A stretch of 64,000 nt of DNA from an uncultured virus (IMG/VR IMGVR_UViG_3300009168_000001) (Duplodnaviria; Heunggongvirae; Uroviricota; Caudoviricetes), in IMG/VR virus record IMGVR_UViG_3300009168_000001, one strand, 5' to 3'. The notes under the pieces are model-generated. The model was not told the origin of the DNA, did no database searches, and was given only the letters and a program-made list of their open reading frames with translations. Positions 4,616-62,302 of the stretch are shown here, one piece after another; within the stretch, counting starts at the first letter, position 1; the number at the start of each line of letters is the position of its first letter. Position numbers and translations under genes: made by a program.

Positions 4616-7501
4616 TCAGACGATGAAGCCTGTCGAAAGCTGCGCAGTGATGTGCTGCACACCCAACAGATCGAGATCGCCGTCAGCGATATTGAATGCG
4701 AAGTCGAGGTTCGCCGTCTGCGTTCCAGAGGTGGTCTGGACGAAGCCGATGTCCACGATCTTCAGCACGTCGTTGTCGGTCGGATCGAAGGCGTGCTTGA
4801 CACCCGTCGCGCCACCAGCCGCACCCAACGCCTTGTTGAAGTCGAAGGCATCGCCGGTCAGGCCGTTGGCGGACTGCATGATCTGCATGCCCTGTATCTG
4901 GTAGTGCTCGCCTGCGAGGTTGTAGTCGTTGGACTCGATGATGACGAGGCCATCGTTGTTGTCGAGCGGAAACTCCGTTGTCCATGGTGCAGGCACGCCA
5001 CCGGGAGTCGACGCTTTGTAGATATCCGCGTTCTCGATGTTGAGCATGCGCGTGGTGTGAACGTCGTCACCGCCGCCCAACACACCGTTGGCTCCGTAGT
5101 CGATCAGATCGAGATTGATCAGAAGGTCCTCGGAGTTGCCGATACCGTCGAACTTGAGCGCCACGGCGCTGACCACTTCGGTCGGCGTGATGGGTTCGTT
5201 GACGATGTGCGGGTTCTCTTGGAAGAAGCGCAAGGTGAGCAACTCGCCCTTCTGGATCGTATCGCCGGCCACGCCGTTGGTGGTCTGCGTCGCCGATACC
5301 CAGTCCGCGTGGCTATTGGCGACGAACTCGCCCGCCACCCATGCAGTGTTGCCGGTCTGATTGTCGGCACCAGTGCTATTGGTGATGAAGCCAACGCTGT
5401 TGGTGGTGCTGTTCGCCGTGAACTGGACGAAGAACGGATCACCCTGTTCAACAACCGGAGTCCCCGGGACGTCACCCGACAATTGCTCGACCACGATATT
5501 CGGATGGCCGGTATTGCCGGTCGGCTCTTTCGCCGTGAGCTCCGCAGTGTGGAGCACGTCGAACGAGAAACCCTGCACCGGAGTAAGGTCGGTGATGGTG
5601 AAGGTGTCTGCCGCCTTGTCGAAGTGCAGCGTGCCGGTCGCGGTGCCGTCTTGGACGCCAGCCGTGATCGGGTCTTTGTCGTAGTGGAATGACCAAGAGA
5701 AGTCCGCTGACGCGGCGTCCTCATGGGTCATCGTCGCCACGGCCTGCGTGATATCGGTGACCGGCGGACCATTGACGGTGCCTGTCAACGTGATCTGCGT
5801 GCCCGCGAGGTTCGGATTGACGTCAACGAAGTCCGATCCGCCGGCCAGATAGAACGCCGCCGTGTGATCGTCGTGGCCGATGTCGTAGCCGAACGCGCCG
5901 GTCGCGAACTGGCCAGCTTGGTTTCCAAGATGGATCGCGGTTGCCGTGGTCGAGTTGGACGATGGCACCGTGAGCGTGATCGTGTCGTCATCGATGGAGA
6001 AGTTCTTGCCGATCTCCAGCGTGGTCGACGCCTTGTCACCGTCCCTGTCGGTAATCTCCGCCGTCAGCGTGATCAGGCCAGCCGATGCGAAGAACAGCGT
6101 CTGGTCCGGGCCGGTGTCGGGATCGTGGGTCACCGAACGGAATTGCGTGAACACCACGTCGCCAGCGGCGCTGACGCTGATGGTGAACACGGTGTCGCCG
6201 TCAGTGTTCTTGCCGGAGATCACGCCGCCCGCCTTGGACAGTACGACCAACTGGCCGGTCTCTTCATCGGCAAGGCCGGTCGCGCCAAGGCCGAAGTTGA
6301 GATCGAAGCTGATGGCCGTGCCGCCATCCGCCCCGTAGTTCTTGGTGAACAACGGACCGTAGTCAGCGTGCGCCGCGCCGGCATTTCCCAGTGTGGTTTC
6401 GTCCACCGCAGCAACCGGCGGCGTGCCGTTCGGCGTGATGGTCGGGAAGTCGTCCTTGAAGATCAAGGAGGACGCGATCCCAACCGTCTCGTGGTCCTTG
6501 TCGCCATCCGCGTCGGTAGCGGTCGCCGTCAAGGTGATCAGGTCGTTAGCCGTCAGGCCAGTCGACTGATCCGGTCCGCTGTCGGGCGTGTGCCTGACCG
6601 CGCGCAACTGATCGAGCGTCACCTGACCGGTGCCGTCGACCGATACCGTGAACACCAGATCGCCGCCAGAGGTGCGGCCTTCGATGACGCCAGCCCCCGT
6701 CTCGGACAGGATCGCTTCGAGGTTGGTCGCCACGTCGAAGATGCCAGAACCGCCGCCGGCAGTGTCGAGCGTGTATTCCGTGCCGCTGGCACCTGCACCA
6801 TCGGTGCCGGAATCAACGGTGAAGATTTGCGAGAAGTCGTCGTGCGCGTTGGTGTCTAAAGACGAGTCGTCAACCGTGAGCGTAGGTGCGGTGCCAGTAA
6901 TGGTCACGTCCGGACCATCGTCCAAGACGATGATGTCGTCCCCAATGGGTTTGGACACCACGACAGACGCCGAGATGTTCAAGATGTCGGAGAAGTCCAC
7001 CGCGTCGTTCGGGTCGTTCGGGTCGGTGTGGTGCAGCGGCTGGAACGTGATGCTCTGCACGCCGGCCACCGTGTTGGTCGCATCCGTGCTCTCGATGTAG
7101 AACGCCGCCGCGATGGTGTCGGCACTGAAGCCTGCCACGGCACTGGTCGAGATCAGCACCACCTTGCCACCGTCAGCCGACCACATATAGAGCGGCGAGC
7201 CATCGAGAAGCGTCACGCCTACAACAAGGTCACCGTCGAGATCGTTGCCGGCGGCGTCGGAGAAGAACAGCGACTTGACGGTCTCGTTGAGACCGGGCGT
7301 CACCGTGACCAGATCAGGATCGCTCGCGCCATCAACCAATGCCGCGAAGTTCTTCTGAAAGGCCGTTAGCCCAAGACTGTTAAGGAAAGTCGCGAAGTCG
7401 GAATCGAGACCGCCAAGCGTGGCGGAGACGTCAATGTCACCCGCCTGTACTCCGGCGGTCTGGTCGAGAATCAACTGCCCGTTAATATTGATTGTAGCCA
7501 T
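4616..7501 (-). CDS. 961-aa acidic repeat adhesin-like protein (DUF5801/T1SS-143-like repeats); moron
   Basis: Repeats VFTVSVDGTGQVTLDQLRAVRH / VFTISVSAAGDVVFTQFRSVTH, DADGD/DRDGD and DDGP/DDFP; D/T/G-rich; no signal peptide; own terminator. Confidence 0.75.
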   Translation of the reverse strand: MATININGQLILDQTAGVQAGDIDVSATLGGLDSDFATFLNSLGLTAFQKNFAALVDGASDPDLVTVTPGLNETVKSLFFSDAAGNDLDGDLVVGVTLLDGSPLYMWSADGGKVVLISTSAVAGFSADTIAAAFYIESTDATNTVAGVQSITFQPLHHTDPNDPNDAVDFSDILNISASVVVSKPIGDDIIVLDDGPDVTITGTAPTLTVDDSSLDTNAHDDFSQIFTVDSGTDGAGASGTEYTLDTAGGGSGIFDVATNLEAILSETGAGVIEGRTSGGDLVFTVSVDGTGQVTLDQLRAVRHTPDSGPDQSTGLTANDLITLTATATDADGDKDHETVGIASSLIFKDDFPTITPNGTPPVAAVDETTLGNAGAAHADYGPLFTKNYGADGGTAISFDLNFGLGATGLADEETGQLVVLSKAGGVISGKNTDGDTVFTISVSAAGDVVFTQFRSVTHDPDTGPDQTLFFASAGLITLTAEITDRDGDKASTTLEIGKNFSIDDDTITLTVPSSNSTTATAIHLGNQAGQFATGAFGYDIGHDDHTAAFYLAGGSDFVDVNPNLAGTQITLTGTVNGPPVTDITQAVATMTHEDAASADFSWSFHYDKDPITAGVQDGTATGTLHFDKAADTFTITDLTPVQGFSFDVLHTAELTAKEPTGNTGHPNIVVEQLSGDVPGTPVVEQGDPFFVQFTANSTTNSVGFITNSTGADNQTGNTAWVAGEFVANSHADWVSATQTTNGVAGDTIQKGELLTLRFFQENPHIVNEPITPTEVVSAVALKFDGIGNSEDLLINLDLIDYGANGVLGGGDDVHTTRMLNIENADIYKASTPGGVPAPWTTEFPLDNNDGLVIIESNDYNLAGEHYQIQGMQIMQSANGLTGDAFDFNKALGAAGGATGVKHAFDPTDNDVLKIVDIGFVQTTSGTQTANLDFAFNIADGDLDLLGVQHITAQLSTGFIV

Positions 7502-32668: not shown

Positions 32669-34255
32669 TTACAGATCGAGCGCGCGAACCTTGCGCGCCT
32701 GATCGGTTGCCTCGGGTGCCGAGGCGGGACGCGCCCGACCGGCAGCCCAGTCACGCAGCGCCGTGATCTTCTCGGACGCTGTCACGCTGAGCGGCACCAC
32801 CGTCTTGGCGGCGTCGATCAGATCGACCGTGGTGATCTCGCGAGCACCATCGTTGAACGCTGCGAACAGCGCATCGGGCACGATGGCTGCGATCTCCGAG
32901 CCGGTGAAGCCCTCGGTCGCTTTCGCAACCTTGGCCGCATCGACCTTGACGTCGCCGCGATCATACTGACGCAGTGCGGCAGCGAGCACCGCGTGGCGCT
33001 CGACCGTGGTGGGCAGGTCAACGAACCACAGTTCATCGAACCGACCCTTGCGCAGCAACTCCGGTGGCAGCGAGGATGCATCGTTCGCCGTCGCAATGAC
33101 GAACGCTTCGCCCTGTCGCTCCTGCATCCAGTTCAACACCGCACCAAGCGCATCGCTCGACACGCCGCCGTCAGACGATCCCGACGTCGCGCCTTGCAGC
33201 GCTTTTTCGATTTCATCGAACCAGACAACGCACCTGCCAATCGCTTCGATCAGCTTGAACAGCCGGCGCAGGTTGGCTTCACTGTCTCCGACGAACTTGG
33301 ACTTGAGCGCGCCAAGGTCGACCTTCAACAGCGGACACTGCCACGCGGTCGAGACCGCCTTGGCCGTGAGCGACTTGCCGGTGCCCGGGATGCCGACGAG
33401 CAAGATGCCCTTCGGTGCCGGCAGGCCGTAAGCCCGCGCAGCCGGCGAGTAGGCCGACTTGCGGACGCCGAGCCAGCCCTTGAGGTTATCAAGGCCGCCG
33501 ACCGCATCGAGGCCGCCTTTCATCGGCTCGATCCATTCCACGACGCGCTCGCGGCTAACGACGCGCTTCTTCTCGTTGGCGACCAGCACCGGGTCGATCT
33601 TGCGCAACTGCACCAGTGACCGGGCGTAGCACGCCTGAGCCTCTTCGCCGGAGAGGCCGACCGCCGCATCGATGGCGGCGTCGCGCTGACCGTTGGGCGC
33701 TGCGCTTTCACGCAGGTCATCGGGCAGGCCTTCAATCGCCGCATCGAGGATCGCGGCGATCTCCGCCCGATCCGGCATCGGCCAGTCGATGACCGTGGCA
33801 TGGCCAGCGAGCTCCGCCGGCATGTCCGCCTTGGGCGAGATCACGATCAGCGCCTGCGCCGAGTCGCGCGGTGCGCCCGGCAATGACCGCGCGAGGTTGC
33901 GCAGCATGCGCACGGTGGTGAAGCCCACGGCACCTTCGAGCCACGGTGCCAGATCGCGCATGATCCAGACGCCGCGCTCACGTCCCGAGGCGCGCCCACC
34001 GATCAGGGTGAGCACGGCAGCCGGGTCCTCGCTGCCACGCATCTCGGTGACAGGTTTGCCGGAAAGATCGGCGACGCCCTGAGCGACGTCCCACGTGCGC
34101 GGGATGTAGCCGGCAGCGGCAGCCGCTTCGATCAGAAGCGCCTCGACCCGCGCCTCTTCGCGGGTGACGATCCAGATCAGCGGGTTACGTGCCCGCAGTA
34201 GAGCGGAGACGTCAGCGGCGACCACTTGGCCGCGTGTCTTGGTTTCGGTAGTCAT
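32669..34255 (-). CDS. Ycf46-like AAA+ ATPase
   Basis: Walker A GIPGTGKS, Walker B VWFDEIEK, ATAN, RKGRFD; degenerate N-terminal AAA module. Confidence 0.9.
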   Translation of the reverse strand: MTTETKTRGQVVAADVSALLRARNPLIWIVTREEARVEALLIEAAAAAGYIPRTWDVAQGVADLSGKPVTEMRGSEDPAAVLTLIGGRASGRERGVWIMRDLAPWLEGAVGFTTVRMLRNLARSLPGAPRDSAQALIVISPKADMPAELAGHATVIDWPMPDRAEIAAILDAAIEGLPDDLRESAAPNGQRDAAIDAAVGLSGEEAQACYARSLVQLRKIDPVLVANEKKRVVSRERVVEWIEPMKGGLDAVGGLDNLKGWLGVRKSAYSPAARAYGLPAPKGILLVGIPGTGKSLTAKAVSTAWQCPLLKVDLGALKSKFVGDSEANLRRLFKLIEAIGRCVVWFDEIEKALQGATSGSSDGGVSSDALGAVLNWMQERQGEAFVIATANDASSLPPELLRKGRFDELWFVDLPTTVERHAVLAAALRQYDRGDVKVDAAKVAKATEGFTGSEIAAIVPDALFAAFNDGAREITTVDLIDAAKTVVPLSVTASEKITALRDWAAGRARPASAPEATDQARKVRALDL

Positions 34256-35373: not shown

Positions 35374-35841
35374 TTGTTCTGGTCCGTCGTTCAGTCACAG
35401 CCGGCCTGCGAGCGCCGCGCCATCACCCACATCGAGCGGCAGGGCTTCACGCTGTATGCGCCAAAGGAAAAGATCATCCGCATCGTGCGGGGTCGCAAGG
35501 TGCACACATGGCGCTGGTTATTCCCGCGCTATTTGTTTGTGTGGATCGAAGATCAGTGGCAGCGCCTGTTCTCGACCATCGGTGTCACCACCGTGCTCAT
35601 GAACGGCGACAAGCCGGCCAAGCTGCCAGATGAATTCATTCCCGACATGAAGTCCCGCGAACACCACGGACTGATCGAGCTCAAGCGCTCTCGGTTCAAC
35701 AAGGGACAACAAGTGCAGGTAACCGGCGGATTGTTCGTCGGTCAGCGCGGCATCTACCAGAACATGACATCTCGACAGCGCGAGGTGATCTTACTGGAGA
35801 CGCTGGGCAGAGTTGAACTGGCTCCGGGCTTGCTGAGATAA
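35374..35841 (+). CDS. NusG/RfaH-family antiterminator
   Basis: W.VVQ...LFPRYLFV...STIGV (NGN domain) and GQQVQVTGGLFVG (KOW); GGAGG RBS, TTG start. Confidence 0.85.
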   Translation: MFWSVVQSQPACERRAITHIERQGFTLYAPKEKIIRIVRGRKVHTWRWLFPRYLFVWIEDQWQRLFSTIGVTTVLMNGDKPAKLPDEFIPDMKSREHHGLIELKRSRFNKGQQVQVTGGLFVGQRGIYQNMTSRQREVILLETLGRVELAPGLLR

Positions 35842-35946: not shown

Positions 35947-36426
35947 ATGACCGATACAACGGACATGGGCTCCAACGTCGTACCGATAAAGAAGGACAAA
36001 CGCGGTCGCTTCGGCAAAGAGGGCGTGCCCAACCCGGGCCGGCTGCGCGGCACCGTCAACAAGAACACCCGCCTGTTAAGGGAAGCGATCATGCTCGCTG
36101 CCGAGATCGAGGGACAGGACGGTCAGGGCAAGGGCAAGCTGGTCGGCTTCTGCCGCAGGGTGGCGCAAGAGGACCTGCGCGCGTTCTGCATGTTGCTCGC
36201 ACGCGTGATCCCGTTGCAGGTGGAGAGCAAGACCATCGATGACACGCCAAAGCGCACCACCTACAAATCAGTGGACGAGGTGAAGCGCGAACTGGCCAGC
36301 CGTGGCATCTCGATGGAGGTGATGTTCAAGATCATGCAGGCCGAGCCTGATCCGATGGCCACCAAGGAGACCACCACCATCGACAGCGACACTCCGCCGG
36401 AGAGCATTGACGTCATCGAACCGTGA
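35947..36426 (+). CDS. Terminase small subunit (putative)
   Basis: GRF.K...NPGR..GTVNK motif; directly upstream of TerL. Confidence 0.65.
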   Translation: MTDTTDMGSNVVPIKKDKRGRFGKEGVPNPGRLRGTVNKNTRLLREAIMLAAEIEGQDGQGKGKLVGFCRRVAQEDLRAFCMLLARVIPLQVESKTIDDTPKRTTYKSVDEVKRELASRGISMEVMFKIMQAEPDPMATKETTTIDSDTPPESIDVIEP

Positions 36427-36442
36427 CAGATAGAAATGCCGC

Positions 36443-37909
36443 ATGGTTCAATTCCCACCCGAGAAGGAAGAGCTAACCGAGGCTGATCAAGCCAAGCTGA
36501 ACGAGCTCGGCTACGCGGTGGCCCGCGATGACTTCTACGCCTTCCGCAACATCATCCGGCCCAACATGGTCAAGACGTGGTGGCAGAAGCATCTCGCCGA
36601 TAACCTGCAATGGTTCTACGGGCAGATGGTCAAGGGCAAGCGCCCGGCGATGGTGATCATGGCACCACCGCAGCACGGCAAGACCGAACAGGTGACGGAC
36701 TTCATTTCGTGGGTGGCCGGCAGAGACCCGAACCTGCGCACCATCTTTGGATCGTACAGCGACGAGCTCGGCGTCAAAGTGAACCTCGCGCTGCAACGCA
36801 TCTACGACAGCGAGCGCTACCGGCAGGTGTTCGAGCTCACCCGCATCAATGACACCGCCGCATCGTCAACCGCCGCGCGATGGCTGCGCAATTCAACGAT
36901 CCTCGAATACGTCGGCTACGAGGGATCGTTCCGCAACACCACCGTGATGGGCCAGATCAACGGCATGGGGCTCGACCTTGGCGTGATCGATGATCCGATG
37001 AAGGGCCGCGCCGAAGCGCAGAGCAAGACGATACGCGACAAGACGTGGAGTTGGATGACCGACGACTTCTTCGGGCGCTTCAGTGATCAGGCCGGCCTGT
37101 TGATGATCATGACACGCTGGCACCTCGATGATCCGCTCGGCAGGTGGATCGAGCACTTCCCGCAGACACGCGTGCTGCGCTACACCGCAGTGGCCGAACG
37201 CAACGAGAAATTCCGCCAGAAGGGCGAAGCGCTCTTCCCCGAGATGAAGCCGCTGGAGTTTCTGCAACAGCGGCGCAAGGTGCTCACCAACGCCGGCTGG
37301 CAATCGATCTACCAGCAAACACCGGTCGCTGCCGGCGGCGATATGTTTCCGACCGAGCGCTTCAACATCATCTCAGGCGTCGACCGTTCGCAAATCAGGA
37401 AGAGCATTCGCTACATCGACAAGGCCGGCACCAAGGACGGCGGCGCGTACACCGCAGCGACGCTGGTGCACGACATGCGCGACGGCACCACCGTGATCGA
37501 GGACGTGATCCGTGGCCAGTGGTCGGCCATCGAGCGCGAGCAACGCATCCTGCAAGCGGCGCAAACCGACAAGGTAATCTGCAAGCGCTACTCGGTATGG
37601 GTGGAGCAAGAGCCGGGATCAGGTGGCAAGGAATCCGCCGAGGGCACCATCCGCAGACTCAAAGGTTTCGATGCGCACGCCGACAAGGTGACCGGAGCGA
37701 AAGAGGTTCGAGCCGAGCCCTACGCCGCACAGGTGCAGGCCGGCAACGTGTCGCTGGTCGCAGGCGAGTGGAATAGGGCTTTCCTGCAAGAGCACGAGGA
37801 GTATCCTTACGGTAAGTACCTCGATCAGGTCGACAGTGCAGCCGGCGCGTTCAACAAGCTGGCCGAGAGCATCGGGTCGTATGATCGAACGCTGTCGTGG
37901 GTGGGGTGA
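36443..37909 (+). CDS. terL: Terminase large subunit
   Basis: APPQHGKT, GVIDDP, MTRWH; nuclease motifs DKAG and DQVD. Confidence 0.92.
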   Translation: MVQFPPEKEELTEADQAKLNELGYAVARDDFYAFRNIIRPNMVKTWWQKHLADNLQWFYGQMVKGKRPAMVIMAPPQHGKTEQVTDFISWVAGRDPNLRTIFGSYSDELGVKVNLALQRIYDSERYRQVFELTRINDTAASSTAARWLRNSTILEYVGYEGSFRNTTVMGQINGMGLDLGVIDDPMKGRAEAQSKTIRDKTWSWMTDDFFGRFSDQAGLLMIMTRWHLDDPLGRWIEHFPQTRVLRYTAVAERNEKFRQKGEALFPEMKPLEFLQQRRKVLTNAGWQSIYQQTPVAAGGDMFPTERFNIISGVDRSQIRKSIRYIDKAGTKDGGAYTAATLVHDMRDGTTVIEDVIRGQWSAIEREQRILQAAQTDKVICKRYSVWVEQEPGSGGKESAEGTIRRLKGFDAHADKVTGAKEVRAEPYAAQVQAGNVSLVAGEWNRAFLQEHEEYPYGKYLDQVDSAAGAFNKLAESIGSYDRTLSWVG

Positions 37910-39262: not shown

Positions 39263-42200
39263 GTGATGTACCTGTTCGACACCTTCACCAATTTCCTGTC
39301 GGGCCTTGGCGTGATGGGGCGCGACAAGTCGACCGGCCATCAGTACACCAAGCAACTGTGGACGCGTGAGCAACTTGAAGCCGCGTTCACCTCCGACTGG
39401 ATCACGCGCAAGGCGATCACGATCCCGGCGCAGGATAGCGTGCGCGAGTGGCGCGCGTGGCAGGCCGAGCAAGACCAGATCGAGTCACTGGAGGAGACCG
39501 AGGACCGCTTACGCGTGCAATTGAAATTGCAGGAGGCGCTGATCAAGTCGCGGCTCTATGGCGGTTCGTGCCTGTTGCTCGGCGTCGAAGGCAACATGGC
39601 AAGCGAGCTCGATCCCGAGACCATCGGCAAGGACGGTTTGAAATTCCTGCACGTGTTCGCGCCGCATCAGTTGGTGCTCAAGGACCTGATCAAGGACATC
39701 TCGTCGCCGTACTACGGGCAGCCCGAATTCTACACGCTGCACGATGACACCGGAAAGGTTGGCGACGTCGACATTCATCCCTCGCGCATGATTCGGTTCT
39801 GTGGGCTGGAGACCCCGGACCCGATGGCCAACTATGGCTGGGGCGATCCGCTGTTGATGATGATCAACGACGCCGTGAGTGCGACCGGCACCGTGCTGCA
39901 ATCCATCGCCGCGATGATTCAGGAAGCCAAGTTCGACGTCGTCAAGATACCGGGCCTGACCGAAATCTTCTCGACCAGCGAGGGCACCACGCGTCTGGTC
40001 AAGCGCTTCTCCGAGGCCAACGTGGCGAAGAGCATCATCAATGCGGTGGTGCTCGATGGCGAAGAGGAGTGGCAGCGCATCGGCATCGACTTCTCCGGCA
40101 TGCCCGAGGTGATGCAGATGTATTTGCAGGTTGCCGCAGGTGCCTGCGATATCCCGGTGACGCGCTTCGTCGGCCAGTCGCCGGCAGGGTTGAATGCGAC
40201 CGGCGACAGCGACATGAGGAATTACTACGACCGCATCCATTCCGATCAGGTGTTGCGGTTGACGCCGGCACTGGAGAAGCTGGACATCGCAATCCAGCGC
40301 TCGGCGCTCGGCAACTTCGATGAGGATATTTTCTACGAATGGAATCCGCTCTGGCAGATGAGCGACGCCGAGAAGGCGACCATTGCCAAGACCAAGGCAG
40401 ACACCGCCGCCGTGGATGTCACAAGCGGGCTGGTGCCGTTCGAGGCTCTGGTCAAGGGCCGCGTCAACCAGTTGATCGAGGACGGCACCTATCCCGGCAT
40501 GGAAGCCGGCATCGAGGAGGCGATTGCCAATCAGGAATCGCTCGATGAGGAGGAGCTCGCGGGTGAGCTCGCCGCCCAAGCGCCGAAGCAACTAACCGGG
40601 CCGGAGTCGAAGCGCGGCATGGAAGGCCAGAGCGGCAAGGAGGTAGCGAAAGACAGCGCTGTCCCTTTCGCGCGTCAGGCGGCATTGGACCGTTTGGCGA
40701 GGACATTGCATGATCTGTTGATCCCGTGGAATGAACTGGAGCATCCGCGCGGCGGGTTGGAGAACCCGGGACAGTTCACCTCGAAGGGCATGACCAAGAC
40801 GGCGGCGTTTGTCTCGCCGAGCGTCAAGTCAGGTCTCGACTTCAAGGGCGCGGTGAAGGAATTGAATTCGCGCCAGCAAGCGCGACTGCGTGCAGCATCA
40901 GCCGACATCAACAGCAAGGTCGGCATTCAGGGCGCGCAGGAGGTCAACATCATCGGCGCGTGGTCGGACGGTGCCGAGAATTCCATCATGTCGCGCAGTG
41001 ACGCCGACTGGGAGCGCACCAAGCTTGCAAGCGTGATGAAGGGCCACCTCGCCGACCAGAAGGCGGTGCTGGTGTTTCAACAGGGCGATGGGCCGGCGAC
41101 GCTGGCGCAGTTCGAGGCCAAGGGCAGCTTAGATAAAATTCACAAAGGGCTGTTGAAGGACGGCATCGAGAACCATACCATCGTGCCGACCAAGGATGGT
41201 GCGACGGTGTTCGTGGTCGACACCGATGGCAACTCGCTCGAAGCACTGGACAAGGCGGCAGCACGTCATGGCAAAGACAACCCAGTCTACTACCAGTTCG
41301 GAAAAGCCGAGTTCATCGGCTACGACGGCAAAGGATCGGACCGCGAGCAACGAGACCGCGCGCGAGCGATATACCAAGATGTCATTGACCAATCCCCGGT
41401 TCAAAATGCTCAAGCCATCTGGCAAGACATACGCGATCATTGGCAGCCCCCCACCGACCAAAAAGGGTACGCACTGACACCCAGTGCGCTGGTTGCCGAG
41501 CATCCCGACATCAAACCGAATTCGGTGGTGGTGACGGACGCAGCGAAGATGATCAACGACCGGGCCGGCGAGATACTGCAACGCGATCTCGGGCTCGACC
41601 ACGTGGACGAGGACAACCACACGGAAGAGACCGACGACTATCTGGCCGGCGTCATCGCGATGGAATTGCGTGAGGGCCTGATCGGTGGCGTCTCTGGTGC
41701 CGACTGGTACGACGAGACCATGAAGAAGGCGATGCGCATTGCCGAGGAAATCTATCCCGGCATTGCCAAGGACAAGAACCAGAAGTTCATCTACACCGCC
41801 GCGCTCGCGATCACCTCGCAGGGTGAGACCGTCGACCGCAACGTGGCGCTGGCAGATCAGGCCTACACGTATTTCCTTGAGCACGGCAGGTATCCGACCG
41901 ACATCAAGGCGAAGAAGGCAAGTATTGCCGGCAACCTCAAGAAGATGAACGAGATGATCGAGGAGGCCGGATCAATCGACAAGGTTCGCGAATTCTTCGA
42001 CAAGCCGATGACCGCGCGCGATCTAGCTAAGGCAACCGGGGTCGAGCCCGGCGCTACACTGAAGGATGACTTGCTGTATGGCTCGGCAATGCTTGGACCG
42101 AAGATCGGGCAGGGCTTCTATCAGAATCTCAACGGCAACTTCACGCCGATCACGATGGACTTGTGGTTCATGCGCGCGTGGGGACGCATCACCAACACGG

Positions 42201-42664
42201 GCGTTGCCGGCGGTGGCCACGAGAAACAGATGGAGCGCTTCGTCGGTGCGCTGAAGGACGCCGGCCATCCGGTGCCGCGCAGTGAAGCGGACCGCATCGA
42301 GCTCGCCGCCAAGATTTACAAGGAGCACGAGCGCGCGTTCGCCGCCGCTGCCAAGGCCAAGGAGGAGTACGAAAAGACCGAACTGATCCTCGCATCCGAG
42401 CGGCTGACGCTGATGGCCAACGGCATGATGGTCGAGCAACCGAAGAACGGAAGCCAGCGCAAGTGGATCACGAGCGTGTTCAACAAGGCGATTGCGAAGT
42501 TGAAGAGCGAGCGCGGCATCACGCTGACGCCGGCAGGTGCACAGGCGACGTGGTGGTGGCCCGAGAAGATTCTCTGGGAGGAGATGGGCGTTCGCGGCAA
42601 GGAGCGTGACACCGATTATGCCAAGTCACTGTCGACGCTGTCGAAGAAGAGGCGAGACGCATGA
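39263..42664 (+). CDS. Portal protein (DUF1073-type) fused to a ~650-aa C-terminal cargo
   Basis: aa 1-~440: SRLYGGS, IHPSR, DIPVTRFVGQSPAGLNATGDSDMRNYYD, WNPLWQ. The ORF continues without a stop to 1133 aa. Confidence 0.85.
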   Translation: MMYLFDTFTNFLSGLGVMGRDKSTGHQYTKQLWTREQLEAAFTSDWITRKAITIPAQDSVREWRAWQAEQDQIESLEETEDRLRVQLKLQEALIKSRLYGGSCLLLGVEGNMASELDPETIGKDGLKFLHVFAPHQLVLKDLIKDISSPYYGQPEFYTLHDDTGKVGDVDIHPSRMIRFCGLETPDPMANYGWGDPLLMMINDAVSATGTVLQSIAAMIQEAKFDVVKIPGLTEIFSTSEGTTRLVKRFSEANVAKSIINAVVLDGEEEWQRIGIDFSGMPEVMQMYLQVAAGACDIPVTRFVGQSPAGLNATGDSDMRNYYDRIHSDQVLRLTPALEKLDIAIQRSALGNFDEDIFYEWNPLWQMSDAEKATIAKTKADTAAVDVTSGLVPFEALVKGRVNQLIEDGTYPGMEAGIEEAIANQESLDEEELAGELAAQAPKQLTGPESKRGMEGQSGKEVAKDSAVPFARQAALDRLARTLHDLLIPWNELEHPRGGLENPGQFTSKGMTKTAAFVSPSVKSGLDFKGAVKELNSRQQARLRAASADINSKVGIQGAQEVNIIGAWSDGAENSIMSRSDADWERTKLASVMKGHLADQKAVLVFQQGDGPATLAQFEAKGSLDKIHKGLLKDGIENHTIVPTKDGATVFVVDTDGNSLEALDKAAARHGKDNPVYYQFGKAEFIGYDGKGSDREQRDRARAIYQDVIDQSPVQNAQAIWQDIRDHWQPPTDQKGYALTPSALVAEHPDIKPNSVVVTDAAKMINDRAGEILQRDLGLDHVDEDNHTEETDDYLAGVIAMELREGLIGGVSGADWYDETMKKAMRIAEEIYPGIAKDKNQKFIYTAALAITSQGETVDRNVALADQAYTYFLEHGRYPTDIKAKKASIAGNLKKMNEMIEEAGSIDKVREFFDKPMTARDLAKATGVEPGATLKDDLLYGSAMLGPKIGQGFYQNLNGNFTPITMDLWFMRAWGRITNTGVAGGGHEKQMERFVGALKDAGHPVPRSEADRIELAAKIYKEHERAFAAAAKAKEEYEKTELILASERLTLMANGMMVEQPKNGSQRKWITSVFNKAIAKLKSERGITLTPAGAQATWWWPEKILWEEMGVRGKERDTDYAKSLSTLSKKRRDA

Positions 42665-44814
42665 TCAAGGGCAAGCCAAGCTTTGCACCGTGGCAGGACG
42701 ATCCTGATCCGCCGGATTACTGGGACGACGACGACTATGAGGCGATGCGCGTTCGGCTGCGCGCGTACTGGGGCGGCACACCGCTCGATGACACATGGGA
42801 CCCGGGCAGGCATCCGCGCAACGAGGAAGGCGAGTTCGCCAGCGTGATCACGGTGGAGGAGGAAACGCCGGAGGCGGTTGGCAAGCTGGGACGCATCGCG
42901 GTGAAAAATTTGGAGGCGCTCAGCGCCACGGGTGAGCAATATCGCGGCACGCGCATCAAGGCCTACACCACGCAGGGCGAGACCGGCATCTTCATCGAGA
43001 ACGCGCAGCGGCTGATCAAGAGCACGGGCAAATACCAGAAGGCGACGCGGTCGTATCGCTTGCGGGTGCCGTTCAAGATCAAGACCATGAGCCACGACGC
43101 GATCCGCGAGTGGAACGAGGAGAAGCATTCACGCGTGCAGGGTGGTGCGACCGGCGGACAGTTCGGCACTGGCACCGGACCGATGACCGCACGCAAGGAG
43201 AAGAGCGGACGCGCCACCGCAGCAATTGCTGGCCGGCACAAGGAGCACGTGCAGGGCGAGCGCGCCAAGGCGCAGGAGGCCCAGCAACAATCGATGCAGG
43301 CGGAGGCCGCCGCGCAAGCGCAAGAGGTGAAAGCGAAAGAGGATCAGACCGCCGCCAAGAAGGGCAAGAAGGTCTCGCGCAAGGAGGACTTCGACAAGGC
43401 CGGCGTGCGCATCCGTGGCGTGACCAGCGAGCACGAGACGTTCATCGCCAAGTGGAATGACAAGATCGGGATCGACCCTGCGGAATTCGAGAAGATGTTC
43501 ACCGGAGGCTTGCAGGACCGGGTCGATCTGTCGGTCGGCATGAGCGGGTCGGAGATTCAGGTCAGTGGCACCATCAAGGATGAGCGCGGCAACAGCATCG
43601 GCAATTTCGACCGCGACATCAAGCCGGATAAGAACGAGGCTTACAGCGCCTACTTCAAGCTGGAGAAGGCCGCGACCGGCGACGACACCGGCAAGCGCAT
43701 CCTCGGCGGCAACATCGAGACCTATGAGGCGATGGGCATCGACACCGTCAAGGTGACGGCCAACATCGACGTCGGCGGCTACGCGTGGGCCAAGTACGGC
43801 TACGTGCCGACCGCGTCCGCATGGTCGACGCTGTCGGGTGATTTGGAGCGCAAGCTTGACCGTGAGACCGAAGAGGGCCCGAGCGGATCGCGACATCGGC
43901 GCAGTAGCGGTGACACCTACGAGGCCGACGACTGGGACATGCTGTCATCCGATCAACAGGAGGAGACGCAACGGCGCTGGATGCGCGACAGCCGTGATGA
44001 ATTCGTGCAGAGCGAGATCGAGAGTTGGCGCGACAGCGGTCGACCGAAGGAAGAGGCGAAGAAGGAGATCGTCTCGGACTGGAGTAGCGGCGACAATGAC
44101 TGGGCGCTGGATAAATTGAAGGAGCTCCGCAAGGAGCGGCTCGACAAGGCGAAAGAGAGCGGCGAGGAGATCAAGGACTTCGCGCTGAACGACGAACAGA
44201 TACTGGGCGCGCTGACCATCGATGATTACGAGTCGCGCTACGAGGATGGCGGCGACGATCCGGAATGGACGTGGGACGATGCCACGCTGGCCGCCGCAGG
44301 AGAGTTGAAGGCCAAGGGCCAGATGGAGTTGCCCGGGATCGAGCCGCCCGACTACAGCAAGATACTGACCGACGCGGAGCGCACCGAGATCACCGACGCG
44401 CTGACCGACGCCTTCAATGCCAAGGCGGAGGAGGATGAGAGCGACATCGACCCGCCGGATTACTTGAGCGAACAGGTCGAGGAATATCAGGACGAGTACT
44501 GGAGCCAGAAAGACAACGCCGAGAAGCTGTCGCTCGCCATCGACTATGGCCAAGCCGACATCGAGGTCGAGAGCGAGGATGACGGCGACGATCAGGAAGA
44601 GATGGACCTGACCGAGGAGGAGAAGCAATCGCCGGAAGTCAGTGAGCTTTACGATCTGGTGCGCAGTGGCGATCCGAAGTCGATCTGGAAGATCGCCGAT
44701 TCCTCGATGGGCAAGAAGCTGTTGCTGGGCTCGGGCTGGTCGGGCGTGCTGAACCTGAAAGACCCGGAGAGCTACGCGCGGTTTAAGGCCTATGTGGGCA
44801 AGAGGAAAAGCTGA
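42661..44814 (+). CDS. Putative head-packaged polyvalent protein with a split GNAT-like domain
   Basis: Two W..H[PS]R..G.F tags; GDDTGKRIL...TANIDVGGYAWAKYGY; long D/E-rich insert; then GKKLLLGSGWSG. Confidence 0.6.
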   Translation: MIKGKPSFAPWQDDPDPPDYWDDDDYEAMRVRLRAYWGGTPLDDTWDPGRHPRNEEGEFASVITVEEETPEAVGKLGRIAVKNLEALSATGEQYRGTRIKAYTTQGETGIFIENAQRLIKSTGKYQKATRSYRLRVPFKIKTMSHDAIREWNEEKHSRVQGGATGGQFGTGTGPMTARKEKSGRATAAIAGRHKEHVQGERAKAQEAQQQSMQAEAAAQAQEVKAKEDQTAAKKGKKVSRKEDFDKAGVRIRGVTSEHETFIAKWNDKIGIDPAEFEKMFTGGLQDRVDLSVGMSGSEIQVSGTIKDERGNSIGNFDRDIKPDKNEAYSAYFKLEKAATGDDTGKRILGGNIETYEAMGIDTVKVTANIDVGGYAWAKYGYVPTASAWSTLSGDLERKLDRETEEGPSGSRHRRSSGDTYEADDWDMLSSDQQEETQRRWMRDSRDEFVQSEIESWRDSGRPKEEAKKEIVSDWSSGDNDWALDKLKELRKERLDKAKESGEEIKDFALNDEQILGALTIDDYESRYEDGGDDPEWTWDDATLAAAGELKAKGQMELPGIEPPDYSKILTDAERTEITDALTDAFNAKAEEDESDIDPPDYLSEQVEEYQDEYWSQKDNAEKLSLAIDYGQADIEVESEDDGDDQEEMDLTEEEKQSPEVSELYDLVRSGDPKSIWKIADSSMGKKLLLGSGWSGVLNLKDPESYARFKAYVGKRKS

Positions 44815-45008
44815 TGCCGAAGATACACGGGGCCGCCGAGGGCGAAGTGGCGCAGGAATTCTTCTATGAGGAAGGTGCCGGCAAGATGGCCGATGCAGAT
44901 TTGCATAATCGAATCATGTTCGTGGCCGAGCACTGCGTGGTCGATGAGACCATCATGGCACCGATCCGCGAGCGCTATCGGCGGAAGCACGCAAAGAAGG
45001 GCAAATGA
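44814..45008 (+). CDS. Small protein coupled to the GNAT-like gene
   Basis: TGATG overlap; 64 aa. Confidence 0.55.
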   Translation: MPKIHGAAEGEVAQEFFYEEGAGKMADADLHNRIMFVAEHCVVDETIMAPIRERYRRKHAKKGK

Positions 45009-46084
45009 TCAACCGGCGTGACCCGACCCGCAGCGCACCGTTGCGCCGACATGGTCGCGCGCTGGTCAATCGCCGGGTGCATGCGCTGCATCTGCGGCTG
45101 CGGCAGGGATTATCCGAACAGGACGTGGTTGGCTTGCGCGCGCAGGCGGCAACATCGCCGCCGCTGGCGTTCATCAACTGGATCGAAAGCGTCTCGCACA
45201 AGATGGCGCGCGCTGAGAACATGATAGGGTTATTGATCGATCAGACGCTGACGACGCCGATGGGCTGGCCACGTGAACTGATCGAGCGGGCGGTCGAGCA
45301 TGGCATCGAACTTGTGGAAGCGGAGCTATCCACGTCGCTTGGACGTCTCGACGCTGGAGAGGTGTCACGACTGCATTCGCATGCGGCCACATCTGAGGTT
45401 CGGGGAATTGCTGGGGAGACGGAGCGCCGGCTGTTGCGGCACGTGGTTCGCGCGATTGAGACCAAGCAAAGCCCGGAAGCGCTGATGCGCGAGGTGCGCG
45501 CGACGCTGGAGAAGATCACGCGGCTGCGGCTGCACCTGATGATCAACACGGGCGTGGTCCGCGCGGTCAACGCCGGCAAGTTGTTCGCATACGCGAGTGA
45601 GGGCATTGATCAGGTTGGCATCGACCCCGAGTGGCTACCGCACACTCATCAACGTGACAGTGCGGCTGGTCATCCTCGCGCTGATCTTGTCCCACTTATT
45701 CTCGATGCGCGCTCGAAGAAGGCGAAGCGCCGCGAGCGTGTCGCCAAGAACAAGGCCAAGCGGGTTCGACGCAAGCGCGGTGTCGCCGAGGAATTGCTGA
45801 AGGAGATCGCCGCCAACGCGTTCGGGCAACAGGCCACTGGCTTTGCCGAGCGCGTGCTGGAGGTGATCGAGGAAGCCGAGGACCCGGTCACGATGGTCAA
45901 CGTGCTCACCGCAGGCGACGACAAGGTCTGCCAAGCGTGTGAGGATATCGCGTCAGACGGACCCTATGAGCTCGAAGAGGCGCGCGACCTGATCCCGGCG
46001 CACCCGAATTGCCGTTGCAGTTTCATCCCGTTCGGCGATAAACGCTTTGCTCCAATCGAGGAGCAATTGGAGGAGTGGGAGTGA
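45005..46084 (+). CDS. MuF/SPP1 gp7-like head morphogenesis protein
   Basis: N-terminal DPTR; C-terminal GDDKVC..C...IPAHPNCRC. Confidence 0.8.
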   Translation: MINRRDPTRSAPLRRHGRALVNRRVHALHLRLRQGLSEQDVVGLRAQAATSPPLAFINWIESVSHKMARAENMIGLLIDQTLTTPMGWPRELIERAVEHGIELVEAELSTSLGRLDAGEVSRLHSHAATSEVRGIAGETERRLLRHVVRAIETKQSPEALMREVRATLEKITRLRLHLMINTGVVRAVNAGKLFAYASEGIDQVGIDPEWLPHTHQRDSAAGHPRADLVPLILDARSKKAKRRERVAKNKAKRVRRKRGVAEELLKEIAANAFGQQATGFAERVLEVIEEAEDPVTMVNVLTAGDDKVCQACEDIASDGPYELEEARDLIPAHPNCRCSFIPFGDKRFAPIEEQLEEWE

Positions 46085-47560: not shown

Positions 47561-54711
<7,151 letters not shown>

Positions 54712-59652: not shown

Positions 59653-60110
59653 AGATCATCGACCACGGCAAGTGGCTTCCGTACAAGCCGCCGAAAGACA
59701 ATTGGCCGGAGAACGCGCCGCTCAATGCGCTGTTCGCCAAGCGCGAGAGCGACGGCAAGGACTGGTACGAGCACGTCAACGATCCGACGAGCTTCCAGCC
59801 CGACACCGTCAAGGTCGGCTTCATGTTTCACGACTTCGAACAGGAATGGATCATCGGGCCGGCCTCGACTGATCCGACGCTGATCTTCCCGGCCAATATG
59901 TACGTGCGCGAGATCGATGGCTTCGGCTCTGTCGATGAGGACGAGATCATCGCCGCGTTCCGCAACAAGGTGATCGACGTTGCCACCAATGCCATGCGCG
60001 ACCGACCGATTGCGCCGCAACTGACGCCAGAACAACTGATGGCGACGCACCCGAATACGATTCTCGACCTGATCGAGCGCGTCAAGAAACTGGAGGAGAG
60101 ATTGAAGTGA
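59649..60110 (+). CDS. Fibre assembly chaperone-like protein
   Basis: ESDGKDWY...D...IFP motif typical of tail-fibre assembly proteins; follows the fibre genes. Confidence 0.6.
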   Translation: MKIIDHGKWLPYKPPKDNWPENAPLNALFAKRESDGKDWYEHVNDPTSFQPDTVKVGFMFHDFEQEWIIGPASTDPTLIFPANMYVREIDGFGSVDEDEIIAAFRNKVIDVATNAMRDRPIAPQLTPEQLMATHPNTILDLIERVKKLEERLK

Positions 60111-62302
60111 TCATTCTCCCCGACAGAAACATCGCGCGTGCGAAGTATCTATTGCCGATGCTCTATCGAGATTGGCGCAAGCCTCTCTCGTGGGAAGGTA
60201 AGGACACATCCAACGTCCTCGGCATCTACTTTCTCGTGCAGGCGTGGCGTGCGGACAAGCGCGTGGTCTGGACGGGGCGCTTCGAGGACCGCGAAGATGC
60301 CGATGAGTTTCTCTACGCTATAGCGACAGGGTCGCTCCTGAAGGACAAGTATATCCAGCGGCTCGTGCAGCCGATGCCGTGGTCCGGTTATCGTGAATCG
60401 GATTTCGACCCAGCGATGCTCTACGACGAGACCATCCACTACAACATGGTCACGCAAATCGGCATCGGTGCGAGCTCTGGCGTGTGGACGGCACCGGGTG
60501 ATTGCTACGGTCTGCGAGACCGGGCTGGTGAGATTGCCGACGTGATTAGCGGCGGCGGTGGCGGCGGATCAGGCAGCGGTGGCTACAGCGCGGCGGGCGG
60601 TGGTGGCGGCGGGTTTGCCCGCATCACCAGCTACGGAATGTCTCCCGGTCAACAGTTCAGCTACGGCATAGCCGGTGGTGCCGCTGGCGGCACTGGCGAT
60701 GGCTATAGCGCCTATGCTGCGAACGGTGCCAGTGCGGGCGCAAGTTGGTTCATCAGTGGAGGTGTGCTTGCTGCTAACGGCGGCGGCGCTGGCAACGCTA
60801 CAACACAAACGACAACCGGTGGCGCTGGCGGTGCCGGTTACGCTGGAGCATGGGGCAAGACCGGAGGACGCGGCGGATATACGACAGCCTATCCCTACAG
60901 CGGTGGCGGCGGTGGTGGTGGCGCTTCTGGTCCGAACGGTGACGGTTGGAATGGTGGTGACAGCGCTGCAAACTACGCTCAAACGAATGGCGGCAGCGGC
61001 AATGGCAACCAGATCGGCGGCGGCGGCCCGTCTACGGATGGCGCGGCAGGAAATTGGTACGGCCCTTGGGGACCGGGCGGCGGCGGTGGTGGCCAGCGCA
61101 TCATATCCTCTGCGCCGAATGGTCAATACTACGCTGGCAGTGGTGGGCACTACGGCGGCGGCGGCGCTGGGCAGGCCATGCCTGCCGGTCAGCCGGGCTC
61201 ACGCGGATATGGCGGCAGTGGCGGCTCGGGCATTCTCGTCATTCAGTACGAATCGACACCAACCGTCGTAGTCTCAAGCATAAGTCCTGCCAGCGGACCA
61301 ACCGGCGGCGGTCAGGCTGTCGCGGTTTCCGGTAGCGGCTTTGCCAACATCAGTTCAGCCAACATCGGTGGCGCACCGATCACGGGGATTTCGTACAACG
61401 CCAACACTCTCTACGGCACCACGTCTCCGGGCGGCGCGGGCACCTATAACGCCTACGTCTACGGTCCTTACTCGACCGGCGTTGGCGGCAGCTACACCTA
61501 CGTCACGCCGCCATCGGTCAGTTCTGCCGTGCCAGCTTCAGGCCCGATAGGCGGCGGCAACTACGTTCGCGTCTACGGCGCTAACATGAGCGGCGCGACA
61601 GCGATCTACTTCAACGGCGTTCCGGGTACGAGTCTATCAAACGTCGATGCGAATTCTGTGCAGTGCTACGCGCCTGCGGGTGCGGCTGGTGCTTGCAGCA
61701 TCGCCGTCTACAACGGTTACGGCAGTGGCGCGGCGACGGTCTACACCTTTGTCACGCCGCCATCGGTGAGTTATGTCACGCCGGCCTCGGGACCAACCAC
61801 GCCAAACAACGCCGTCTTGGCTGTCATCACCGGCGCGAACATGGATGGTGTTAACTCGGTGACGTTTGGCGGTGTGGCCGCGTCGCCCATTGCGGTTATC
61901 AATTCGACTACGGTTCACGCTTGGGTGCCGGCGCATGCCGCTGGCTTGGTCAATGTCGTGGTCACCAACGGCTACGGCTCTGGCAACGCCAACGCCTACA
62001 CCTACGTCGTGCCGCCGTCGCTGAGCGCCTGCAATCCGGTCCTTGGTCTCACGCATGGTGGCATGGCGGTGACATTGACCGGAGCCAACCTGTCAGGCGT
62101 CACCAGCGTTACTTTCGGCGGCACAGCGGCAACCAGCGTGGTCGTGGTCAACGCCAACACCATCACCTGCATCACGCCGGCTCACGCCAGAGGCCTCGTG
62201 GATATCGTCGCAACCAACACCTACGGTTCGGGCGTGCTGGCGAATGGATTTACTTACTTGCTTCCAGCGGCTGGCTTCAACATGCCGATGATGGGAATCT
62301 GA
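60107..62302 (+). CDS. Glycine-rich protein with four IPT/TIG domains
   Basis: GGGGG-rich domain ending GGSGILVIQY; four P.SG...GG..V...G.N repeats. Confidence 0.8.
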   Translation: MIILPDRNIARAKYLLPMLYRDWRKPLSWEGKDTSNVLGIYFLVQAWRADKRVVWTGRFEDREDADEFLYAIATGSLLKDKYIQRLVQPMPWSGYRESDFDPAMLYDETIHYNMVTQIGIGASSGVWTAPGDCYGLRDRAGEIADVISGGGGGGSGSGGYSAAGGGGGGFARITSYGMSPGQQFSYGIAGGAAGGTGDGYSAYAANGASAGASWFISGGVLAANGGGAGNATTQTTTGGAGGAGYAGAWGKTGGRGGYTTAYPYSGGGGGGGASGPNGDGWNGGDSAANYAQTNGGSGNGNQIGGGGPSTDGAAGNWYGPWGPGGGGGGQRIISSAPNGQYYAGSGGHYGGGGAGQAMPAGQPGSRGYGGSGGSGILVIQYESTPTVVVSSISPASGPTGGGQAVAVSGSGFANISSANIGGAPITGISYNANTLYGTTSPGGAGTYNAYVYGPYSTGVGGSYTYVTPPSVSSAVPASGPIGGGNYVRVYGANMSGATAIYFNGVPGTSLSNVDANSVQCYAPAGAAGACSIAVYNGYGSGAATVYTFVTPPSVSYVTPASGPTTPNNAVLAVITGANMDGVNSVTFGGVAASPIAVINSTTVHAWVPAHAAGLVNVVVTNGYGSGNANAYTYVVPPSLSACNPVLGLTHGGMAVTLTGANLSGVTSVTFGGTAATSVVVVNANTITCITPAHARGLVDIVATNTYGSGVLANGFTYLLPAAGFNMPMMGI

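Follow-up and report, generated by a model that had tools for sequence, protein, structure and literature searches.

What does a phage portal protein carry when its reading frame does not end with the portal, and could this cargo act on DNA? The question is raised by a stretch of 64,000 nucleotides from an uncultured virus of the Caudoviricetes (IMG/VR record IMGVR_UViG_3300009168_000001), which was analysed as a whole and is referred to below as the window. A single open reading frame (ORF) at 39263..42664 (+) encodes 1133 amino acids (aa) from a GTG start codon, and its translation joins a portal in frame to about 650 aa of cargo, in which a header tag is followed by two modules, A (aa ~516-727) and B (aa ~747-1130). 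The explanation we favour, at a probability of about 55%, is a portal with polyvalent cargo whose module B has a glycosylase fold and acts on DNA. The protein comprises the following features.

39263..40717 (+): portal proper, aa 1 to ~485, matching PF06381, phrog_146 and TIGR01555
40742..40777 (+): header tag H-P-R-G-G-L-E-N-P-G-Q-F, aa 494-505, preceded by W-N-E-L-E
40808..41443 (+): module A, predicted tandem ferredoxin-like domain, aa 516-727
41501..42652 (+): module B, predicted all-alpha HhH-GPD-like domain, aa 747-1130, with a helical-hairpin insert at aa ~981-1055
42101..42160 (+): candidate active-site block of module B, L-G-P-K(947)-I-G-Q-G-F-Y-Q-N-L...T-M-D(966)-L-W-F-M-R(971)

The portal and its in-frame extension

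The identification of the N-terminal part as a phage portal is solid. The Pfam model PF06381 matched aa 37-383 over profile positions 2-356 of 357 (E-value 1.4e-98; 330.3 bits against a cut-off of 33.8), the PHROG portal family phrog_146 matched aa 2-480 (E 2.1e-121), and the NCBIfam model TIGR01555 was found with an E-value of 9.4e-71 and 238.9 bits, its cut-off being 196.25. Membership in the portal family follows from the full-length model match above the curated cut-off, together with the position of the gene in the head block near the large terminase. A second start codon, ATG at 39266, gives 1132 aa and lies directly 3' of a GAGG-like stretch, with the stop codon of the upstream ORF overlapping. 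It is the likelier start, since a 99% identical database protein of 1132 aa (P0002) was aligned from residue 2.

A preliminary description of this locus had claimed that the portal continues without a stop through a linker and an HPR tag into two further domains. This was confirmed: one ORF spans all of them, and every motif quoted there is present in the translation (ALAITSQ, GPKIGQGFYQNLNG, ITMDLWFMR, AQATWW and the HPR tag at aa 494-505). The two domains are real in the sense that BLAST mapping revealed them as separately mobile modules. The junction was checked in assembled contigs, not raw reads, of three metagenome runs. In contigs of runs X1 and X2, either of which is possibly the source sample, positions 39900-41500 are covered throughout and show 0 differences and 0 gaps. 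Identical contig pieces at 40503-40661 and 40652-41133, free of insertions and deletions, came from run X4, which is not marked as a possible source.

Both fused and separate genes occur among 15 related viral loci. In nine loci, at 66-99% identity, the portal, module A and module B share one frame. Three loci that are near-identical to each other (L011-L013) encode a 491-492-aa portal followed by an adjacent 717-aa cargo gene, which starts six bases after the portal stop codon in another frame. In one of the remaining three the contig ends within the locus, and the other two encode giant proteins that lack a portal. The same fusion was found in many database proteins of 1127-1217 aa carrying PF06381. 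That a stop or frameshift was overlooked between two separate genes, one for the portal and one for the cargo, is next to negligible as an explanation, although the two differently framed genes of L011-L013 might speak for it: the contigs of all three runs show the same junction, free of insertions and deletions, and nine loci and many database proteins from separate sources keep one frame. Since the contigs agree and the loci vary (nine fused, three split), we regard the fusion as genuine and its boundary as evolutionarily labile, and a real portal-cargo fusion of the polyvalent kind is very likely.

Predicted fold of module B

The AlphaFold model of module B, built from a 50-sequence alignment, is all-alpha, with a predicted local distance difference test score (pLDDT) of 93.6 and a predicted template modelling score of 0.88. 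It was compared with 48,161 PDB representatives by a VIA structural search, performed without Foldseek. The top 23 rows, with Z scores from 10.5 to 5.8, consisted of 20 HhH-GPD DNA glycosylases, two DUF2419 entries and gp46 of phage PaMx11. The best row was 3n0u_A (Tm1821 OGG), with a Z score of 10.5, a root-mean-square deviation of 4.1 and 199 of 209 target residues aligned; it was accompanied by NTHL1 (7rdt_A, Z 9.2), ROS1 (8.9), EndoIII (8.7 and 8.1), MagIII (8.2) and OGG1 (8.0). MutY, AGOG and AlkA were also present among the top rows, as was 2abk_A (Z 7.3). The DUF2419 rows were 7ugk_A (Z 8.7, 220 residues aligned) and 7u07_A (Z 7.7), and the PaMx11 gp46 row was 8z2m_A (Z 6.8, 197 aligned). 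In the rows after these 23 (Z ≤ 5.5), only a helical hairpin was aligned, comprising model residues 241-315, which we read as an insert in the modelled domain. A second look, restricted to the 983 chains that Foldseek itself ranked highest, placed DUF2419/Qng1 (7ugk_A at rank 1) and four AGOG-type enzymes in the top five rows. A Foldseek search of BFVD with module B gave 15 matches at E ≤ 1e-3, mostly to pieces of proteins associated with polyvalent proteins.

Because one superfamily fills the hit list and nearly whole targets are covered, the glycosylase fold was assigned, and it is quite probable that module B, as modelled, has the HhH-GPD fold. The two-lobed all-alpha arrangement of that superfamily was recovered by VIA, and sequence similarity at the level of Pfam or profiles was not detected. 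The earlier suggestion that the last domain is glycosylase-like thus holds for the VIA top rows and the second look at the Foldseek chains, and finds no backing in the Foldseek E-values, Pfam, hhalign or the hairpin itself, which are described below.

Candidate active site

The block from L-G-P-K to M-R is the best conserved part of the module-B family, which is represented in 140 of the 216 relatives collected. K947, D966, G945, G949, F952, N955, W968, R975, W815, Y816 and S852 are invariant in all 140 domains, and R971 is conserved in 139. The Lys/Asp pair that the preliminary description had proposed, here K947 and D966, therefore survives in every relative. The spacing of Q853, K947, D966 and R971 is 94, 19 and 5 residues, comparable with the 79, 18 and 5 residues that separate Q41, K120, D138 and R143 in Escherichia coli endonuclease III (Nth), where we take K120 and D138 to be the catalytic pair. 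In the AlphaFold model D966 immediately precedes the helix of model residues 227-237, and K947 begins the helix before it. A partial row for the glycosylase domain of MBD4 ends at model residue 223, corresponding to chain residue 533, which presumably adjoins the catalytic Asp of that enzyme. By their invariance and Nth-like spacing, K947 and D966 are a candidate catalytic pair. For cleavage of a glycosidic bond in DNA by module B, we would put the odds slightly below an even chance.

Several results weigh against a DNA-acting glycosylase carried in the head. A Foldseek search of the PDB with module B gave no match at E ≤ 0.001, the best E-value being 0.31. No match to the module was found in Pfam (E ≤ 10) or NCBIfam (E ≤ 1), sequence and profile searches of the PDB returned chance rows only, and PF00730 flagged only ordinary glycosylase genes in five genomes encoding module B. 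Alignment by hhalign with E. coli Nth alone, with a 9-sequence set and with a diverse set of 11 HhH-GPD sequences, using the whole module and its core, gave probabilities of 0.05-1.7% and mutually contradictory alignments. A Z score of about 10 lies in the range that helical models reach by common arrangement (the tool warns of values of 13-14). Model helices 200-204 and 206-216 are one residue apart, tighter than a canonical helix-hairpin-helix; no canonical G-h-G hairpin is apparent, and the sequence there is L-G-P-K-I-G-Q-G. The module is not basic, with 54 Lys and Arg residues versus 58 Asp and Glu. Finally, neither a head protease nor the major capsid protein was recognised among the scanned ORFs of the window, which covers 64 kb of a genome of ~86 kb. 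With no head protease recognised, cleavage of the cargo lacks an identified agent here, and cargo that stays on the portal could not be injected.

Alternative functions of module B

The fold could also serve an enzyme that acts on a free nucleotide or nucleoside, as DUF2419/Qng1 does, and that might, for example, destroy a host nucleotide signal or cofactor early in infection. Qng1 acts on a free nucleotide. The DUF2419 structures are among the best rows of the VIA search (7ugk_A, Z 8.7; 7u07_A, Z 7.7), and 7ugk_A ranked first in the second look. In relatives, module B is joined to domains that act on nucleotides or NAD (InPase, NUDIX, ART and RelA/SpoT-type), and the lack of basic character of the module is consistent with such a substrate. 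However, DNA glycosylases take 20 of the VIA rows and DUF2419 only two, and the glycosylases reach the higher scores (Z 10.5); the Lys/Asp/Arg spacing matches that of endonuclease III, and some partner domains in relatives act on DNA, topoisomerase IB for example. We rate a nucleotide-acting enzyme as rather improbable.

Module B could instead be a non-catalytic head protein that uses the glycosylase scaffold for DNA binding or structure, such as a holder of the DNA end, a pilot or a plug. The portal part of the protein is shared with phrog_220, annotated as 'minor head protein and DNA pilot', which would suit such a role. But eleven polar or aromatic positions, K947, D966, R975, S852 and N955 among them, do not vary in any of the 140 domains, although identities fall to ~30%. 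Such a pattern is typical of an active site, and the module also occurs far from any portal, inside giant proteins. A non-catalytic function is rather improbable.

Still less probable is a base-modifying transferase that would act on the phage's own DNA, like gp46 of PaMx11, a 5-PmdU glycinyltransferase with a glycosylase fold. That protein appears among the structural rows (8z2m_A, Z 6.8, 197 aligned), but it ranks 21st, under 18 glycosylases. Greedy calling gave 79 ORFs in the window, which holds 64 kb of the ~86-kb genome; in Pfam scans of 52 of them, the other 27 being mostly short, no hydroxymethylase, kinase or other hypermodification gene was found.

A lytic transglycosylase, considered on account of the 'lysin' label of gp16 of Octadecabacter BD virus 1, was dropped: the Glu that follows S-Q-G is kept in only 109 of 140 domains, and VIA found no lysozyme-type fold.

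Architecture of the cargo

The organisation of the cargo was studied in 91 relatives, found by a protein search with aa 481-1133 and mapped back by BLAST. Modules A and B occur in them together, alone and in reversed order (P0038, P0040 and P0043). The query containing both modules matched 2256 clusters at E ≤ 0.001 among 1.84 billion representatives, and many of the proteins are 2000-4000 aa long. Eleven of the 17 giant relatives scanned carry LPD22, LPD38, ART-PolyVal or InPase, and the partner domains in other relatives include InPase, ART-PolyVal, NUDIX, topoisomerase IB, ADP-ribosyltransferase and FAD-oxidoreductase. A scan of genome contigs found only 9 loci, all of them giant ORFs in metagenome-assembled genomes. 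Since the modules are mobile and shuffled and hallmark polyvalent domains co-occur with them in relatives, the cargo is, judged by its sequence relationships, a phage-type polyvalent protein unit: it has at least two separately mobile effector-type domains in one polypeptide, and these co-occur with the hallmark domains.

A separate observation concerns five relatives (P0030, P0035, P0036, P0038 and P0089) in which module A, module B or both are fused to Pfam domains of FAD/NAD(P)-oxidoreductases of the thioredoxin-reductase-like type. P0030 contains only module B and P0089 only module A; such a partner is unusual for head cargo.

The header tag, W-[ND]-E-x-x-H-[PS]-R...G-x-F, was found by a regular-expression scan of all six frames of the window. 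Three occurrences fall in real ORFs: one precedes module A, and the other two are in the ORF that follows. The chains of P0010, P0017 and P0019, which are standalone cargo proteins, start at the tag. A looser motif, P-R...G-x-[FW], was found no more than 90 aa upstream of module A in 60 of 105 relatives, but for module B in only 13 of 129. The next ORF is a second tagged cargo protein.

42661..44814 (+): second tagged cargo protein, 717-aa ORF, with tags at 42811-42837 and 43126-43164

The start codon of this ORF and the stop codon of the portal-cargo gene overlap (ATGA), and the ORF had no sequence match in Pfam, PHROG, NCBIfam or the PDB. In one related locus (L008), a homologue of this ORF with 61.5% identity prolongs the open frame of the portal and modules A and B. 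The locus therefore consists of a portal and a series of cargo modules behind it, and the gene boundaries within this series shift. The shared header tag and the variable fusion points, between portal and cargo and between one cargo and the next, are relevant to the targeting of proteins to the capsid interior.

Module A

The AlphaFold model of module A (pLDDT 92.4) consists of two ferredoxin-like halves and two helices. The best rows of the VIA type were phage S-adenosylmethionine (SAM) lyases, namely 6zm9_A (Z 7.9, 112 residues aligned of a 129-residue chain) and 7ock_L (Z 7.2). Foldseek listed 8bb1_E with an E-value of 3.5e-3 and a template modelling (TM) score of 0.56 on the target, and SAM lyase rows at 2.8e-3 to 5.8e-3; the T3 SAM lyase rows 8bb1_E and 7ock_K had a probability of 1.00 and TM scores of 0.51-0.56 on the target. 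Ferredoxin-like rows of the efflux-pump porter, ACT and CutA types score nearly as high. No PHROG or Pfam match was found for aa 481-740, the protein atlas gave no usable match for the module, and membership in the SAM lyase sequence family was not found.

SAM lyases (T3 gene 0.3 type; Svi3-3) resemble module A in being its best structural rows by two programs, and differ in that module A has ~210 aa and two ferredoxin-like halves, scores within the generic ferredoxin-like range and matches no SAM-lyase family of PHROG or Pfam. The modelled likeness to a phage SAM lyase is weak. Many polar residues are conserved in the alignment of module A, which suggests an enzyme, and by analogy a phage counter-defence enzyme in this position would fit the context.

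Proposed role in infection

Portals are dodecamers, and the portal C-terminus faces the capsid interior. Because the cargo belongs to the portal chain, twelve copies would be built into each prohead, facing its interior. Most probably the cargo would then be cut free near the tag and leave with the DNA at infection, as has been proposed for portal- and MuF-fused effectors. Module B would be a divergent member or a look-alike of the HhH-GPD base-excision fold; it is predicted to bind DNA and flip a base, with Asp966 and Lys947 acting in the manner of an N-glycosylase or an apurinic/apyrimidinic (AP) lyase, and module A would be a second enzyme-like domain. In the preliminary description 12 copies of the enzyme had been placed at the exit channel of the portal. 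Relatives encode the cargo as a separate gene that starts exactly at the tag, which favours head-internal, probably released cargo over an enzyme fixed at the channel. Judging from the modelled fold, the head of the phage probably contains an enzyme that acts on DNA.

A more far-reaching proposal is doubtful at present: module B may found a large, undescribed branch of the HhH-GPD base-excision superfamily whose members are loaded into the heads of tailed phages (as a portal fusion, from a gene beside the portal, or within giant ejection proteins), injected with the genome and active as DNA glycosylases or AP lyases. Under this same tentative proposal, the enzyme might remove defence-damaged or marked bases from incoming DNA or attack host DNA, and the tagged modules A and B would form a portal-borne counter-defence kit in twelve copies per virion. 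If it were true, many uncultured phages and two cultured ones would deliver an enzyme of the DNA base-excision type with their genomes, with a bearing on how phages cope with DNA-targeting defences.

Gene neighbourhood and genome context

The window appears to come from an uncultured tailed phage of soil or sediment with a genome of ~86 kb, of which it covers 64 kb; the closest relatives lie on contigs of 80-88 kb. Two further genes place the portal-cargo gene in the head block.

36443..37909 (+): large terminase subunit, upstream; Terminase_6N E 1.6e-11, Terminase_6C E 2.4e-05, phrog_38 E 5e-71
45005..46084 (+): MuF-like head morphogenesis protein; phrog_758 E 1.3e-07, other head-morphogenesis PHROGs at aa ~289-343

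The Pfam model Phage_Mu_F reached 17.9 bits on the latter ORF, under its cut-off of 29.6. Tail-fibre genes are located further downstream.

Other genes of the window were noted independently of the cargo. A phage-encoded NusG-like protein (35374-35841, +; Pfam NusG, E 3.1e-15) is encoded ~600 bases 5' of the terminase gene, with one 159-aa ORF (35947-36426) between them. In the structural block, a 1711-aa ORF (47561-52696, +) had phrog_10080, of unknown function, as its sole match (E 3.1e-18), with no Pfam match and no PDB sequence match; the G+C content climbs to 0.688 at 50001-52000, within the region of this ORF. A 961-aa ORF (4616-7501, -) contains three DUF5801 stretches (E 4.2e-61) and had no PHROG match. 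An AAA+ ATPase is encoded at 32669-34255 (-; Pfam AAA, E 8.4e-28), and phrog_8638 matched it nearly end to end (E 2.8e-174). In the tail region, a 731-aa ORF (60107-62302, +) has four IPT/TIG stretches (E 6.3e-37).

Comparison with known systems

The HhH-GPD glycosylases (Nth, OGG, AGOG, MutY, AlkA and MagIII) have in common with the modelled module B a two-lobed all-alpha fold. In sequence spacing, the invariant Lys, the Asp 19 residues later and the Arg 5 further resemble K120, D138 and R143 of Nth, and an S-Q motif lies ~94 residues before the Lys, as Q41 of Nth lies 79 before K120. Module B differs from these enzymes in several respects. A sequence relationship to the superfamily is not detectable, and neither a canonical G-h-G hairpin nor an iron-sulfur cluster motif was recognised. 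The module is also about twice as large, with an additional N-terminal part and a helical hairpin of 75 residues as an insert, and is found in a phage cargo setting. The structural likeness to Qng1/DUF2419 is about as strong as that to many glycosylases (Z 8.7, 220 aligned), and again there is no sequence match.

DUF7178 (PF23802) takes the slot after module A in four relatives (P0073, P0082, P0084 and P0086). DUF7178 clusters from viruses are the protein-language-model neighbours of module B, and a weak, sub-threshold DUF7178 match (E 7.8e-4) lies inside module B of one relative (P0058). The DUF7178 model had no match on the portal-cargo protein of the window at E ≤ 10, and only faint collinear similarity between the two was detected, by hhalign with P0084 and by hmmsearch. 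No mention of DUF7178 was found in the literature searched. DUF7178 may be distantly related to module B or may have taken its place.

Two cultured, podovirus-like phages carry relatives of module B in giant proteins of ~3000 aa within structural blocks. These are gp16 of Octadecabacter BD virus 1 and a 3125-aa protein of Limnohabitans phage DC33, with 22-31% identity over 310-335 aa and E-values of 3e-6 to 4e-35. They differ from the window protein in not being fused to a portal, and are annotated as 'lysin containing a beta/gamma crystallin motif' or as hypothetical. The record of phage DC33 (PQ492659.1; locus L016) has Inoviridae in its taxonomy line, yet the genome is 39 kb, and the label looks wrong.

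Portal-fused and injected effectors are a known theme, and most domains of such proteins are without an assigned function. According to the main text of Iyer et al. 2017 (PMC5512222), effector domains are fused to portal and MuF proteins, and it is argued there that they are packaged and injected. The window protein resembles the polyvalent proteins described in that text by its shuffled effector-like domains in one chain, its place among head genes and its fusion to a portal. Unlike known polyvalent proteins, neither module A nor module B matches any Pfam model, the LPD models included. The word 'glycosylase' occurs 0 times in the main text of PMC5512222, and nothing relevant on a polyvalent protein with a DNA glycosylase, or on HhH-GPD proteins associated with the virion, was found in the literature searched. 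With the fold assignment and the invariant set of Lys, Asp and Arg residues, a domain that had no identity becomes the subject of an enzyme hypothesis that can be tested directly. The locus thus combines a known theme, portal-fused cargo, with an undescribed and widespread domain family predicted to have a glycosylase fold.

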